From contig OX597821.1 of assembly GCA_951406725.2 (NCBI GenBank), positions 112,902,001 through 112,966,000 of the forward strand: 64,000 nt of DNA, in the 5' to 3' direction. Positions 9,990 through 50,692 of the stretch are shown piece by piece (the first letter of the stretch is position 1; each line of letters begins with the position of its first letter). Below the pieces are notes generated by a model. It had not been told where the DNA came from and searched no databases. It saw only the letters and a program-made list of their open reading frames with translations. Position numbers and translations under genes: made by a program. Origin of the DNA: Octopus vulgaris (lineage: Eukaryota).

Positions 9990-10180
9990 GATCGTTAGCC
10001 ACTACACACATTTTTTTCTCTCCCTTGTTTCTCTCCTTGTTTTTTCTGTGTCCCTTTCTGTAGAAGAGCGTAGGCTCGAAACGTAAAATACTTTTTCTAT
10101 TCCTGAGCGTTATACTAATACATCTGTTTGTTTTGTACACCACCTATCTTTGTCTTTTGTTTTTTCGTAAACTCTCACTA
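9990..10180 (+). mobile_element. Short T-rich repeat (Penelope pLTR-like) with minimal hammerhead-like motif at 10054-10089
   Basis: TTT CTGTAGA A GAGC-gtag-GCTC GAAA CG TA AAA. Near-identical reverse copy at ~48740-48920. Confidence 0.6.
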
Positions 10181-10310
10181 TGTATATATATATATTACCT
10201 CTTCTGGCTTAACGGCCCTCCATGTTTGCTTTCGTTTTGTTTGTTGTATGTTTCCACTGTCCTGTTTTATTTAATTTAATTCTTTCGCAGGAAGGACTAG
10301 CTCGACATAA

Positions 10311-12595: not shown

Positions 12596-15081
12596 ACAAA
12601 ATAACTCCAACCAACCAGGGCAGGTAACATACTGGATCTCTGCTTCACAAATAATATGGATCTCATCCATAATGTGAAAGTGACACCGACACTACTCTCG
12701 GATCACAACATGGTAGAGCTGACCATGTACGGGCCAAAGGAAAGCATGGACATGCAGCCTACAAGAAACTCTCAGAATCTTTCCAGCTTGAACTTCCATA
12801 AGGCAAACTGGAAACAAATTGAGAAAGAGATCCTCAAACAAAAATGGCCTGAATGTCTCTCCTCGCCAGACATCGACATGAAACTTCAACAATTCATGTC
12901 TGTAATGCAAGCAATATGCTACAAATGTGTCCCAGAGAGAAAGGCCACTGTACACAAGAGCAAAATCCCCAGTGAGAGGAAAATTCTAATGAGACGGCGT
13001 ACAAAAGTTTCAAATCGCCTAAACAAACAAAGTGAAAGCAGTGAAAAGTCCCGCCGGAAAATAAAACTGTTGGAATTTGAAAAATGTCTGCAACTCTCCC
13101 ATGAAAAAGAAAGAGCAGACAAAGAAGCCTGGGCTATAGACAACATAAAATCTAACCCCAGAGCTTTCTACAGGTATGCCAAAGAAACAGCTTTGGTGCA
13201 CTGTAGGATAGGGCCACTCCTTGAAAAGGATGGCACACTCACAGGAATTCCAATGAGGGTAAGTGAAATACTAAATGAGCAATTCAGGAGTATTTTCACT
13301 CCACCCCTAGGGCATTTTCAAGTCAGCAATCCAACTGACTTCTTTACCACTGAAGATATAAAATCAGAGGCAGCGATGATTGATTACATCAATATAAAAG
13401 GAAGACGATGTAATAAAGGCTATTGATGAAATGAAAACAAACTCAGCTACTGGCCCCGATGGATTCCCAGCAATCCTCCTAAAAGTATGTAAGAGAATCC
13501 TAGCAAGACCACTGCAGTTCCTCTTTCAGAATTTCCTTGCAACTGGCAAACTTCCAAGAAAGCTGAAAGAAGGTAAAATATGCCCTATTCATAAAGGAGG
13601 TAGCAGAGCGGAGGCCAAGAACTACAGACCTATCTCTCTGACCTCACACATCAGCAAGGTCATGGAACGAATAGTCAGAAGGAAACTAATCACCTTCCTT
13701 GAAGAAAATGACTTGCTGCCTGACACCCAACATGGTTTCCGACCAGGAAGAAGCTGCTTAACTCAGCTCCTACAACACTATGACTGGGTGCTGAAACGAC
13801 TGCTCAACCACTCAAATGTGGAAGTCATATATCTCGACTTTGCAAAGGCCTTTGATAAAGTCGATCATGGAATGATATGTCACAAACTGCGTGATCTTGG
13901 CATAGTTGGAAAATTGGAAGAATGGCTTCATGACTTTCTGAAGGATAGAAGTCAGGTGGTAGTAGAAGTCAGCAAATAGTGAGCGGTGTTCCGCAAGGCA
14001 CTGTTTTGGGACCACTAGTGTTTATAATGGCCCTCTCAGACATGCCCTCAACCACGCAGAGAGCCACAATCACAAGTTATGCAGATGATACAAAAGTTTC
14101 ACAGGCAATACAGAACCCTGAAGACACTAAGCACTTGCAATGTGAGCTGGACAAAATATACAAGTGGGCTGAAAAGAATAGCATGCAGTTCAATGCTGAA
14201 AAGTTTCAAGCTTTATGCTATCAGCATGCAAAACTAAATGCAATACCCAATAAATACACTAGACCTGGAGGGATTGCAATCCCAGAGGCACAATCAGTGC
14301 GAGACCTGGGTATTTACATGAGTGATGATGCCACCTTCCATGTGCATGTTGCTAAATTGGCAATGAAATGTAGGCGGCTGACCGGATGGATTCTTAGAAC
14401 CTTTAGAACAAGAGACCAGGAAATCATGATGGTCCTCTAGAGGACACTTGTCCTAAGCCACTTTGACTATTGCTCTCAGCTATGGTCACCATCCAGTGTC
14501 AAGTTAATCACAGAACTTGAGGCGATCCAACGAAGCTACACGAAGAAGATAGCCTCTGTGCAGCATATAAGCTATTGGGAAAGACTCAAGAGATTGAGAC
14601 TATATTCCTTAGAGCGTAGGCGAGAAAGATATGCCATAATATACATCTGGAAGATCCTAGAAGGACTTGTCCCAAACTTTGGCATCGAGAGTTACACAAA
14701 TGCCAGAACTGGGCGCCACTGCAGAGTGCCAAGGACTCCAAATTTGCCATCAAGATGTAGGACGATATACTGTGATAGCCTGGGCTTCCGAGGCCCACAG
14801 CTCTTCAATATCCTCCCGAAGAACCTAAGAGACCTGCATGGGGTGGATGCAGATGTTTTTAAAATAAAACTGGATCTTTTCCTGTCAGGTTTCCCTGATG
14901 AACCAACTTCACGACAGGAGGTGCAGATGAGGGCAGCTGCATCAAACTCTCTCATGCATCAAATGGCAATTGCTAAAAAGCATTCGTGAAGTAAAATCAT
15001 GTAGCAACACCAAATTGCGGTGCCCCAGCATGGCCACAGCTTGTGAGCTGAAACTAGATAAAAATAAAAAAATAAAATAAA

Positions 15082-17926: not shown

Positions 17927-20090
17927 ATTGATTGATTGATTGATTCTAGTTTCAGCTTATGAGCTGTGGCCATGCTGGGGCACCGCCATTTGGTGTTGCT
18001 ATTTGGTTTCACTTCATGGAGGCTTTCTAACAACTGCTATTTGGTGCATGAGAGAGTTCGATGCAGCTGCCCTCATCTGCCCCTCCTGCCGTGAAGTTGG
18101 TTCATCTGGGACACCTGACAAGAAGAGATCCAGCTTCATTTTAAAGACATCTGTATCCACCCCATGCAGGTCTCTCAGGTTCTTCGGGAGGATATTGAAG
18201 AGCTGTGGGCCTCGGAAGCCCAGGCTATCACAGAATCTTGTCCTACATCTTGATGGCAGGTTTGGAGTCCTAGGCACCACGCAGTGGCGCCCAGTTCTGG
18301 CATTTGCGTAACTCTCGATGCCAAAGTTCAGGACACTTCCCTCCAGGATCTTCCAGATGTATATTATGGCATATCTTTCTCGCCTACGCTCTAAGGAATA
18401 GAGTCTCAATCTCTTGAGTCTTTCCCAATAGCTTATATGCTGCACAGAGGCTATCTTCTTCGTGTAGCTTCGTTGGATCGCCTCAAGTTCTGTGATCAAC
18501 TTGACACTGGATGGTGACCATAGCTGAGAGCAATAGTCAAAGTGGCTTAGGACAAGTGTCTTCCAGAGGACCATCATGGTTTCTTGTTCTCTTATTCTAA
18601 AGGTTCTAAGAATCCAGCCAGCCAGCCGTCTACATTTCATTGTCAGTTTAGCAACATGTACATGAAAGGTCGCGTCATCACTCATGTGAATACCCAGGTC
18701 ACGCACTGATTGTGCCTCTGGGATTGCAATCCCTCCGGGTCCAGTGTATTCCTTGGGTATTGCATTCAGTTTTGCATGCTGATAGTATAAAGCTTGAAAC
18801 TTTCCAGCATTGAACTGCATGCTATTCTTTTCAGCCCACTTGTATATTTCGTCCAGCTCACATTGCAGGTGTTTAGTGTCCTCAGGGTTCTGTATTGCCT
18901 GTGAAACTTTTGTATCATCTGCATAACTTGTGATCGTGGCTCTCTGCGTGGCTGAGGGCATGTCTGAGAGGGCCATTATGAACAGTAGTGGTCCCAGAAC
19001 AGTGCCCTGCGGAACACCGCTCACTATTTGTGTGTTAATGGAGGTGGCCCCATTGGCTACTACCACCTGACTTCTATCCTTCAGAAAGTCATGAAGCCAT
19101 TCTCCCAGTTTTCCAACTATGTTGAGATCACGCAGTTTGTGACATATCATTCCATGATCGACTTTATCAAAGGCCTTTGCAAAGTCGAGATATATCACTT
19201 CCACATTTGAGTGGTTGAGCAGCCGTTTCAGCACCCAGTCATAGTGTTGTAGGAGCTGAGTTAAACAGCTTCTCCCTGGTCGGAAACCATGTTGGGTGTC
19301 GGGCAGCAAGTCATTCTCTTCAAGGAAGGTGATCAGCTTCCTTCTGACTATTCGTTCCATGACCTTGCTGATGTGTGAGGTCAGAGAGATAGGTCTATAG
19401 TTCTTGGCTTCCGCTCTGCTACCTCCTTTATGAATGGGGCATATTTTACCTTCCTTCAGTTTTCCTGGAAGTTTGCCAGCTGCAAGGAAGCTCTGAAAGA
19501 GGAACTGCAGTGGTCTTGCTAGGACTCTCTTACATGCTTTTAGGAGGATTGCCGGGAATCCATCGGGGCCAGTAGCTGAGTCTGTTTTCATTTCATCTAT
19601 AGCCTTGGTTACATCGTCTTCCTTTATATCGATGTAATCTATCGTCGCCGCCTCTGATTTTATATCTGCAGTGGTAAAAAAGTCAGTTGGATTGGTGATT
19701 TGGAGATGCCCAAGGGATGGAGTGAAAACACTCTTGAATTGCTCATTCAGTATTTCACTTACCCTCATTGGTTTTCCTGTAAGTGTGCCATCCTTTTCGA
19801 GGAGTGGCCCTATTCTACAGTGCACTGTAGCTGTTTCTTTGGCATACCTGTAGAAAGCTCTGGGGTTAGATTTTATGTTTTCTATAGCCCAGGCTTCTTT
19901 GTCTGCTCTTTCTTTTTCATGGGAGAGTTGCAGACATTTTTCGATTTCCAACAGTTTTATTTTTAGGCGGCACTTTTCACTGCTTTCAATCTGTTTGTTT
20001 AGGCGATTTGAAAATTTCGTACGCCGTCTCATTAAAATTTTCCTCTCTCTGGGGATTTTGTTCTTGTGTACAGTGGCCTTTCTCTCTGGG

Positions 20091-20095
<5 letters not shown>
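17925..20095 (-). mobile_element. 5'-truncated CR1-group LINE with uninterrupted RT-containing frame
   Basis: Closely similar to 12927-15058 in reverse; 3' tail ends in (CAAT)n; 5' end abuts a (TA)n tract. Confidence 0.95.
18014..20095 (-). CDS. LINE ORF2 fragment (reverse transcriptase, no endonuclease, no native start)
   Basis: Open frame from CVPERK to stop with all RT motifs ([17 protein letters not shown]). The first ~37 aa of the 730-aa ORF are microsatellite. Confidence 0.85.
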
Positions 20096-20139
<44 letters not shown>

Positions 20140-20253
20140 CATACATACATGTACATACATACTTACATACATATATATATATATATTTATATATATATAT
20201 ATACATATATATATTTATATATATGTAGATATATGTGTGTGTATTATTTATTT

Positions 20254-20286
<33 letters not shown>

Positions 20287-30599: not shown

Positions 30600-30939
30600 C
30601 TTTCAATGGTTGCTCTGTCTGCTAGAAATATCAACCTAAGAATTCACGGCTGCGTTCGAATAAATGGGGTCATATGACCAACAAATTTCAATTCCGTTGG
30701 TGAGATTAATAGTTTAAAATGGCGGAAAATTATTTGGAAAATTTTGTACAAAACTTGTCGAAAAACCATCAGAATACACGGGGATATTACCATTTAGTAA
30801 CGTGAGTGTTCACAGCTGCGTTCGAGTAGAAGAAATCATATGACCAGATAAATTCAATGCTGTTGGGGCACTTAATATGCCGACAAATTCTTTTGATGGT
30901 TTTATACAAAATCTGTCAAAACATATGATATTACACGGA

Positions 30940-30990
30940 AATTACCGTTGTCGATTGAAGAAATCGGCAGTGCCCATGATCTTTCTGGGA
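30940..30990 (+). pseudogene. Possible THAP-domain remnant from a DNA transposon
   Basis: RLKKSAVPMIF resembles the THAP C-terminal AVPTIF box; the C2CH residues are not identifiable. Confidence 0.35.
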
Positions 30991-32001
30991 GTCTCCAAGA
31001 CCGACGAGGAGGAAAGGAAGGCGTTTTCCCCCGACCGAAGACCTAGCTTGAATCCTTGCAAGAGAGCGGACTTCATTAAAAGTACCGAAAGACCGAGCAA
31101 TAGTTTTAACCCGGGTCGGAGATTAAATCTAACAAGCCAAAAGGGGAACAGTCTATCCAATGGATTAAATTTACTTCTCCCAGCTAAGTCCAACTCAGGA
31201 TTTGTGGTAGAATTCATTTGCCTACAATGCCCTGCATGGCTTTTTTTTTTCCTTTTCAACCTAAAACCATGCAGTTATGAAACGAACTTCTTAACTACAC
31301 CCAACGCAAGTTTTCTACTAACCGTCTTTTAATAAAAAACCAAACGTAAATGTTCTTAATTCACCGCTCTCCAGGCAAGGAAGGAAGTTGTTGAGAAGGG
31401 CTTTCCATGTTCTTCAGGTCATACTTAAACCTGCTCTGTTATTTTTGTCACTAATCCTTCGGGTCAATAAAGGAGCCTCTACACCAGGGATCCCCAACTA
31501 TCGGATCATGGATCATTTAGCATCGGGCCGCACTGACAGAATATTTTTTTAAATTATGAATCATGTTACACACACACACACACATATACATATATCGGTC
31601 TCATATTTTGGCACAAGGCCAGCAATTTCGAGGTAGGCGATAAGTCGATTAGACCGACTCCAGTGCTCAATTCGTACTTATTTTATCGATCCCGAAAGGA
31701 TGAAAGGCAAAATAAACCTCGGCGGAATTGTTGTATTATACATATTACAATGTAATAGAACAATGTATATAATAGATTTGCATTTATGTATGTATTTAGG
31801 CGGTGAAGTTGCAGAGTGGTTACCGCGCCGGGCAAAAATGCGTAACAGCATTTCGTTTGTCTATACATTCTGAGTACAAGTTCCGCCAAAGTCGACTTTG
31901 GACCGATAAAATAAGTACCAGTTATGCACTGGGGTCGAGTCGAGATAATCGACTAATCCCCTCTTCTGAAATTGCTGGCCTTGTGTCGAAATTTGAAATC
32001 A

Positions 32002-48223: not shown

Positions 48224-48263
<40 letters not shown>

Positions 48264-48318
48264 AATATTAAAATAAATAAGTCTCTCTAAAAGAGAACAG
48301 CGGCAGCGTTCCCGGAAA

Positions 48319-48692
48319 ATAATAGTTATCGCCATACTAATATGGCATTCTTATAAAAATAAGAAAAAAGCTGTCCGCTTATTAGCTCCATGAGGCCATC
48401 GCCTTAAGTTAGCTATTTGATACACAAACTGTATCCATATAACCTTCGAACAAGGGAGGTCAGTCGCTCCACACTACTTGACCGGCAGCTACAGACGCGT
48501 TTCAGGGTATTGCCCCTTTTCAATGCAGCGTAGCCAGCCAGTAGGTGTCGCTTCCGACAATCTCTGTTCGAAGGTTATATGGATACAGTTTGTGTATCAA
48601 ATAGCTAACTTAAGGCGATGGCCTCATGGAGCTAATAAGCGGACAGCTTTTTTCTTATTTTTATAAGAATGCCATATTAGTATGGCGATAAC

Positions 48693-48698
<6 letters not shown>
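48319..48698. repeat. Perfect 134-bp inverted repeat with 112-bp spacer
   Basis: 48319-48452 is the reverse complement of 48565-48698 with no mismatch found by eye. Confidence 0.95.
48479..48539 (-). ncRNA. Type I hammerhead ribozyme candidate with U3-A8 core variant
   Basis: Minus strand: GGCUGGC-uac-GCUGCA UUGAAAA GGGG-caaua-CCCU GAAA C-gc-G UC UGUAGC-u-GCCGGUC. Confidence 0.7.
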
Positions 48699-48739
<41 letters not shown>

Positions 48740-48742
<3 letters not shown>

Positions 48743-48920
48743 GGAAAGTTCACGAAAAAAAACAGAAGATGAAGACTGGTGGTATACAAAACAAACAGAT
48801 GTATTATTATAACGCTCAGGAATAGAAAAAGTCTTTTACGTTTCGAGCCTACGCTCTTCGACAGAAAGGGACACAGAAAAAACAAGGAGAGAAAAAATGT
48901 GTGAAGTGGCTAACGATTTT
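48740..48920 (-). mobile_element. Reverse copy of the 9990-10180 repeat with minimal hammerhead-like motif at 48833-48868
   Basis: CTTT CTGTCGA A GAGC-gtag-GCTC GAAA CG TA AAAG on the minus strand. Confidence 0.6.
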
Positions 48921-48984
48921 CTCTCCTTGTTTTACATACCTCTCTCTCTCTTTCTCTCCTTTCCTTCCTTCTTTCTCTCATCAA

Positions 48985-49052
<68 letters not shown>

Positions 49053-49200
49053 CTCAACACAAGGTAGGAGAACGTACGTGTCCTTTCGTCGTGCTAGAAA
49101 TAGCAACCTAAAACCTCCTTAAATCACAAAAAGAAAACAACGGTTTGAATTAATTACTTTTGGTCAATCAGGTTTACTTTCGGACCAAACAGCAACACCG

Positions 49201-49603
49201 GTGGAGGCGCAATTGCCCAGTGGTTAGGGCAGCGGACTCGCAGTCGGAGGATCGCGGTTTCGATTCCCAGACCGGGCGGTGTGTGTGTTTATTGAGCGAC
49301 AACACCTAAAGCTCCACGAGGCTCTGGCAGGGGGTGGTGGCGACCCCTGTTGTACTCTTTCGCCCCAACTTTCTCTCACTCTTTCTTCCTGTTTCTTGTC
49401 CCCGACTTCCTACGCAACCGCTGAGCCTGGATGCGCATTCATCCATCCGTCGATGCTCTCGGTGTCGGGGGTTGACCTGCTTTCTCTTCTGCGGGTTTTA
49501 CGAATAGCAAAGGACTTACGAATAGCAAAGGCCCACGTTTCGGACTTCTCCCATCTTGCGAGCTCTGAAACGAAGACCGTTCGCTCAACAGCAACAGCAA
49601 CAC
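49201..49603 (+). mobile_element. Family C-head SINE with alternative body and (CAACAG)n tail
   Basis: Same head as 41432; AACAGCAACACC both upstream (49188-49199) and at the 3' end. Confidence 0.8.
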
Positions 49604-50211
49604 CAACACGTAAGAGTGAGTGTCTGTGTTGCTAAAAATAACAGACACCATACACCTACAGTTTTAAAAAGTAGAAGAATTCAAATATGCAGGGGAGGGT
49701 TCTGAACATTTTGGGGAGTCTCAATAACCGTTGCTTTCTGGTAACGCCGATATGCAAGCATTTTCCAAATAAAACCGTAACATTCTTATGACACCCGACT
49801 TAAGATTTACAGCCTTCTCTACCCGCTGTTGCGTTCCTGTGGAAATATGACAACAGCTTTCTAAGATTGGAGACAAGAATTGAACAATCAAAACTGACGT
49901 TATTGTATTTCCAATTACTCTGAAATCTTTAAAGTGTTAAATCTTGTCAAAAGGAAACCTATATGCATTCGTCTGCAGTTTGCAATACAGCGACATCCGT
50001 GAATCAGTAAGGAAACAAACAAACAAAAAATGCAGTCCCGTATCGAAATTCCACCGTCCAACTTTCAGCTGGCCACGATACGTTTCTACCTACGAAAAAA
50101 AAATTCAGTTGATCGCAACGCATTTCAGAGAACAACTAGATTGTATCTCTGCAAGCTTACATTTCTCCGGGACCTACACTTTGTCGTCCTTGCTTACCCA
50201 CAGCAACTGCA

Positions 50212-50580
50212 GGGGAGGCGCAATGGCCAAATGGTTAGGGCAGCGGACTCGCGGTCGGAGGATCGCGGTTTCGATTCCCAGACCGGGCGTTGTGTGTGTT
50301 TATTGAGCGAAAACACATAAAGCTCCACAAGGCTCCGGATGTACCCCTGTTGTACTCTTTCTCTCGTTCCTGTTTCTTGTTCCCGACTTCTTACGAAACC
50401 GCTGAGCCTGGATGCGCATTCATCCATCCGTCGATGCTTTCGGTGTCGAGGGTTGACCTGCTTTCTCTTCTGCGGGTCTTACGAACAGCAAAGGACTTAC
50501 GAATAGCAAAGCACGTTTCGGACTTCTCCCATCTTGCGAGCTCTGGGACGAAGACCGTTCGCTCAACAGCAACAGTAACT
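50212..50580 (+). mobile_element. Second copy of the 49201-49603 SINE
   Basis: Near-identical head, body and tail. Confidence 0.8.
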
Positions 50581-50692
50581 ACACACGATCTCAACGCCAG
50601 ACACGCTTGGCTTCTGCACTTCTTTTAAGGCACTTGCCACGGAATGCACCCTTCTGCCAGAAACATTCCCATTGTGCCGTGGATTGAGAATG

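Follow-up and report, generated by a model that had tools for sequence, protein, structure and literature searches.

A perfect 134-bp inverted repeat in Octopus vulgaris probably marks a truncated Penelope-like insertion with a hammerhead motif and an added inverted arm

The 64-kb stretch of Octopus vulgaris DNA analysed here (the window) has the character of animal DNA and is rich in repeats; it contains microsatellites, SINE-like repeats and two LINE-like reverse transcriptase (RT) open reading frames (ORFs). Its longest perfect non-simple inverted repeat consists of two 134-nt arms (48319-48452 and 48565-48698) that are exact reverse complements (100% complementary) on either side of a 112-nt spacer (48453-48564); the runner-up measures 60 nt, with arms 33 kb apart. 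Self-comparison of the window verified the exact arms, their coordinates and the spacer length as claimed in an initial annotation of this DNA. A (TA)n microsatellite, the inferred insertion target, lies on the left (48226-48258), and a second one lies on the right (48696-48739), where the last TATTAT of the arm blends into it and an unrelated repeat follows. Any target-site duplication is unreadable inside these (TA)n flanks. Between the left microsatellite and the left arm is a 60-nt 3′ ‘tail’ on the minus strand (48259-48318), which has no mirror on the right, and flank-to-flank mirror identity just outside the arms is at background (3-19 of 40 per bin). No further copy or direct repeat of the element was found elsewhere in the 64-kb window. 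As interpreted below, the unit begins with (TA)n and the tail, continues through the arm and the hammerhead hairpin to a 16-bp overlap, and closes with a tailless inverted arm and (TA)n.

On its minus strand the spacer contains a type I hammerhead motif (48488-48529). Stem I pairs GCUGCA (48529-48524) with UGUAGC (48493-48488) and is extended by GGCUGGC/GCCGGUC; the core (U3 U4 G5 A6 A7 A8 A9, 48523-48517) carries a U3-A8 pair, stem II (GGGG/CCCU) falls within 48516-48504, GAAA occupies 48503-48500, and helix III is the palindrome ACGCGU (AC-GC-GU, 48500-48495). C17 is at 48494, with cleavage predicted between 48494 and 48493, ~235 nt from the end of the tail. Helices I-III, a core with a Watson-Crick 3-8 pair, GAAA and a UH cut site are thus all present as in type I hammerheads, and the locus copy departs from them at G10.1-C11.1, where it has G-U. 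A relaxed full type I descriptor found one site in the window, this motif (0 matches in 60 shuffled windows), and together with the fold this confirmed the minus-strand U3-A8 hammerhead that had been proposed for the spacer. Rfam returned no hammerhead match at its gathering threshold or at E≤10, where just miRNA, snoRNA and sRNA matches far under threshold appeared.

The spacer folds at -49.4 kcal/mol (z -4.46; 0/200 shuffles as good). Both the fold and the pair probabilities depict a long imperfect stem on the minus strand, an extended helix I capped by the ribozyme, rather than the open loop that the initial annotation had drawn. The small hairpin TGTCG-cttc-CGACA (48546-48559) reported there is present as letters and appears as a matching 5-bp hairpin in a fold of the plus-strand DNA; in the minus-strand RNA, most of its bases instead pair across the long stem (48558-48554 with 48459-48463, p 0.99-1.0). 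A near-active fold, with the core forced open, costs only 2.3 kcal/mol, and a homoduplex of the ACGCGU helix III is computed at -7.5 kcal/mol.

We then examined copies of the element's family in sequencing runs. Twenty of the 24 runs listed, from 7 organisms and 9 studies, contained at least 69% of the sampled sequence words, and none of the recorded holders of these words was an RNA run. Contigs were aligned to the stretch from 4 independent runs representing three organisms (X2, 1689 contigs; X3, 1316; X8, 1; X13, 22); X13, which may be RNA, contains pieces of the family but not the locus itself. In 4/4 runs contigs match the window between 48258 and 48580 and beyond that point carry different sequence. 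The one contig from X8 is colinear over this whole interval with 5 differences. Among the loose ends listed (19 of 167), near-identical stretches of 30 letters follow 48580 (at least 11 contigs in X2, at least 9 in X3, and 1 each in X8 and X13); this upstream family sequence is absent from the window and repeats nothing in 48258-48580. The tail is likewise part of the family and not flank, with a summed depth of 3×10^5 to 9×10^5 over 48259-48318 in X2 and X3 and colinearity in the X8 contig.

Since family contigs diverge after 48580 in 4/4 runs, only 16 of the 134 mirrored base pairs are native on the right (48565-48580), and the other 118 are an added inverted copy. The left arm (48319-48452, minus strand) is the native 3′ part of the element, colinear with family contigs in all four runs. 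Its inner 16 nt (48437-48452) pair perfectly with 48565-48580, closing the long hairpin, and the family's minus-strand RNA can accordingly fold as a 144-nt hairpin whose base is this perfect 16-bp stem and whose tip carries the hammerhead. What follows, 48581-48698, is a 118-nt, plus-strand, 5′-truncated copy of 48319-48436 that lacks the tail and is not the family's continuation. The inverted copy thus overlaps the direct one by exactly the 16-bp stem, and both ends of the unit abut (TA)n. The 134-bp hairpin is accordingly not supported as the element's constant form, as contigs leave the right arm after 16 bp. Among the contig pieces listed (25 of 3073), none spans the whole stretch, and recurrence of the fold-back form at other loci is not countable from them.

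Taken together, we consider 48259-48698 to be a young, 5′-truncated insertion of the high-copy end of a Penelope-like element (PLE) in (TA)n, with its inverted arm built at insertion by pairing of the 16-bp stem (probability roughly three in four). The recent origin suggested by the initial annotation is upheld in that a young insertion is supported. We infer PLE membership from non-coding traits only: a type I hammerhead near the 3′ end on the sense strand; an inverted 5′-truncated copy placed head-to-head and overlapping the direct copy by a short palindrome; a tail at one end only (60 nt, against the usual 30-40); and (TA)n as insertion target. No RT or GIY-YIG ORF of PLE type was seen near the element in the window, the view upstream in the family being the 30 letters beyond 48580; the window's two RT ORFs lie ~28 and ~34 kb from the element and match RVT_1 only in Pfam. 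The family's motifs were absent from a published consensus set of Naiad, Chlamys and Hydra elements that includes octopus families, a comparison in which line wraps could hide a match. In O. vulgaris, 30 recently active Penelope families have been counted (PMC13282606), and that paper's supplement yielded neither a matching sequence nor a mention of hammerheads. The hammerhead pattern gave 0 matches each in metagenome, viral and prokaryotic genome collections. Arm patterns had no match in viral contigs; in two other collections they matched one locus each, over 21 and 18 nt, and we set these aside as chance (L001 reads as protein-coding).

Published PLE insertions offer close parallels. Craig et al. 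2021 (PMC8557442) describe an inverted 5′-truncated copy beside the 5′ end, a tail of 30-40 bp confined to one end, and a preference for (TA)n; in Arkhipova et al. 2013 (PMC3846280), the inverted pLTR of Pen2a_Av has a 15-bp overlap with the direct one, against 16 bp in our unit, and self-priming was inferred there from palindromes at inverted junctions. Like these complex insertions of EN+ PLEs (PMC3846280, PMC8557442), the octopus unit has a head-to-head inverted truncated copy, a tail on one side, a (TA)n target and a hammerhead within a few hundred nucleotides of the 3′ end; it differs in its 60-nt tail, in a hammerhead borne on a ~50-bp extended helix I, and in that no ORF was seen. Chlamys-2_cBra shares the same form of helix III, ‘gaa ac cg gt c’, some 330 nt before its 3′ end (PMC8557442). 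Cervera and de la Pena 2014 (PMC4209133) recovered about 1,300 U3-A8 matches in Schistosoma, found through a PLE, and reported U3-A8 minimal hammerheads in Schistosoma Cercyon PLEs as well as a conserved G10.1-C11.1. The initial annotation's reading of the motif as a hammerhead of PLE type, in which U3-A8 is tolerated and helix III is palindromic, is supported. With the minimal and short-helix-III type I hammerheads of PLEs the octopus motif shares U3-A8 covariation, the palindromic helix III, G10.1-C11.1 in the family and a predicted dimer requirement; it departs from them in having a long helix I rather than one of 2-5 bp, a short helix II (4 bp), G10.1-U11.1 in the locus copy and, possibly, a second hammerhead 88 nt upstream in the family (PMC4209133). 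Non-LTR retrozymes (Cervera and de la Pena 2020, PMC7229834; Li et al. bioRxiv 10.64898/2026.07.22.740005) are similarly non-coding and PLE-related and carry type I hammerheads, yet they are head-to-tail tandem repeats with a hammerhead in every unit, whereas the locus is one unit plus an inverted arm. Identity as such a retrozyme was rejected, the window holding a single unit and no direct repeat.

How the inverted arm could have arisen is suggested by these systems. A PLE enzyme would nick (TA)n and reverse-transcribe from an outer start, the tail end, to about 48580, whereupon the 3′ end of the cDNA would pair with the complementary 16 nt and fill-in would follow. The partner might be another cDNA, begun at an inner start at about 48319 with the other target strand as primer, or the same cDNA folding back on itself; we slightly favour the former because the inverted copy stops at the tail boundary. 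Frangieh et al. (PMC11167929) report that two internal RT start sites bound the tail, that both target strands are cut and extended, and that ribozyme cleavage is dispensable for PLE insertion. By analogy with the PAc stem-loop start site (PMC11167929), a small minus-strand stem-loop in our arm (GCCAUA-UUAG-UAUGGC, 48331-48346), 11 nt inside the arm/tail boundary, is a candidate inner reverse-transcription start signal. Another copy of the family, in one X13 contig (depth ~137, inferred from bins), begins at the inner edge of the arm and adjoins (TA)n; this single case is consistent with cDNAs ending there.

Other origins for the perfect arms were weighed against this insertion model. Perfect arms, (TA)n flanks, small size and the lack of coding capacity would be accounted for by a MITE or a fold-back DNA transposon that has captured a hammerhead and whose terminal inverted repeats are a constant 134 bp. 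The family nevertheless extends beyond the left arm by 60 nt and departs from the right one after 16 nt in 4/4 runs, so the arms are not the family's termini, and this very improbable alternative is already largely refuted. If a DNA break arising after insertion were mended by fold-back repair, with the native 16-bp stem as primer and no part played by the element's enzyme, the same junction as in our model would be expected, and yeast fold-back inversions primed at short inverted repeats have been described (PMC7467729, PMC11724301). Generic repair has no reason to stop at the tail boundary, whereas the copied arm ends exactly there and is joined to (TA)n, as in PLE insertions; we regard repair as unlikely.

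An assembly or read fold-back artefact might be suspected from the 100% identity of the arms and from the lack, among the listed contig pieces, of any that spans the whole stretch. Read fold-back should, however, mirror the flank too, where identity is at background, and the mirror here starts at a native stem and ends at an element boundary, after which come (TA)n and an unrelated repeat; an artefactual origin is, in our estimate, quite unlikely. The initial annotation had envisaged a long dsRNA with a function of its own, able to open its loop by means of the hammerhead and serving as a potential Dicer/ADAR substrate or replication intermediate. A transcript across the whole locus would indeed fold as a rod, computed at -287 kcal/mol, the near-active fold costs only 2.3 kcal/mol, and natural U3-A8 ribozymes, noted by Perreault et al. 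(PMC3088659), can be active. Against this model, the locus offers one ribozyme with a 2-bp helix III that would need a dimer partner, a single minimal PLE hammerhead showed no detectable cleavage in vitro (PMC4209133), the locus copy carries the rare G10.1-U11.1, and the long arm does not emerge as a trait of the family. We find this self-opening dsRNA model highly improbable.

Position 48504 (minus strand) distinguishes the locus copy from its family. The locus has U at 11.1, a rare change at a conserved pair in the read depth, and the family has C, forming G10.1-C11.1 (the other letter accounts for 98.7% and 98.8% of depth in the two large DNA runs, X2 and X3, and 88% in X13, and is found in the X8 contig). 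This G10.1-U11.1 probably impairs the locus copy. As the locus holds a single hammerhead, a dimer partner is required, and activity is predicted only for a dimer formed through ACGCGU. Dimeric PLE hammerheads were reportedly described by Lunse, Weinberg and Breaker in 2017. Given a hammerhead predicted to be dimer-only and a copy probably weakened in this way, the locus is most likely inert.

Across the family, 14/323 sites vary at ≥4%, and no frequent variant lies within the hammerhead core (the test included 16/26 variant rows, the remaining 10 being below 4% in both large runs). This invariance is not evidence of selection, because no variable site among the 17 core and helix III positions is expected by chance with P = 0.47. 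Three frequent variants at paired positions retain pairing (48481 and 48485, and 48504 in the active register) and two others are in loops; such pairing-preserving variants are too few to argue for covariation, and several pairs are lost in one divergent X13 contig.

Beyond 48580, the family's 30 letters resemble the 3′ half of another hammerhead. In minus-strand orientation they comprise AA, a 5-bp stem (GUGGA/UCCAC), an extra C, GAAA, C-UAG-G, U and A, and the X3 consensus differs at one stem base. The cut predicted for this putative motif lies 88 nt upstream of that of the U3-A8 motif and one base beyond the end of the native 16-bp stem. A half-hammerhead descriptor gave 15 matches in 38.4 million shuffled bases, a figure that overstates the case since the descriptor was written post hoc and hand-matched. 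If the family did carry two hammerheads 88 nt apart, upstream cleavage would leave an RNA 5′ end at the foot of the long hairpin, and the cDNA would run off where stem pairing can prime an inverted arm. Cleavage might then set the junction of PLE inverted repeats and link two unexplained PLE traits, an idea that we hold only tentatively and consider doubtful. A junction formed by stem pairing has to fall at the end of the stem in any case, so what coincides is the predicted cut and the stem foot, and this is no proof that the inversion resulted from cleavage. A full-text literature search, with most subscription papers outside its scope, returned no relevant paper linking cleavage to PLE inverted arms. 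Should the upstream motif work and cut at the stem foot, the high-copy family would allow a genome-wide test of cleavage fixing the fold-back point; the function of PLE hammerheads and the origin of the inverted arms are stated as open questions in two studies (PMC8557442, PMC11167929).

Taken by itself the locus is unremarkable: it adds another truncated PLE-type copy, bearing the inverted arm and tail that have been described since 2013. Its value is as a clean example, in which the junction maps to a native 16-bp stem, fitting the self-priming idea for PLE inverted repeats. A 26-codon open frame runs from an ATG at 48335 through the tail; a frequent family change at 48311 would create a stop in this frame unless it is linked to a second change. 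On the minus strand, 48350-48385 contains a branch-point-like CUAAU, a pyrimidine tract and an AG just upstream of the same ATG, an arrangement that resembles, on its letters, the intron end and ORF start of PLE pLTRs.

Several further features were observed in the window. A second PLE-like repeat family is represented at 48740-48933 (minus) and at about 9995-10195 (plus); the two copies share about 90% of their letters across 173 nt, and both carry a (TA)n run at the 3′ end. A motif resembling a minimal hammerhead occurs in each, position 6 being a non-canonical U (C3 U4 G5 U6 N7 G8 A9, an extra A, the stem GAGC/GCUC, then GAAA CG UA). The 5′ side of the 48.8-kb copy ends in a 17-bp perfect hairpin (48879-48933) absent from the 10-kb copy; lying 200 nt from the 134-bp hairpin, it may be a further small fold-back at a truncation point. 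At 30844-31332 (plus) is a 162-codon open frame of non-repetitive look that has no Pfam match; it includes a ‘SAVPMIF’ stretch, which is reminiscent of THAP-domain ends. A LINE-like element is present in two RVT_1 copies, at 18014-20257 (minus) and 12605-14989 (plus), comprising one long open frame and one frameshifted. Finally, a repeat with a tRNA-like head, which we take to be SINE-like, occurs in two copies at 49189-49600 and 50200-50600.
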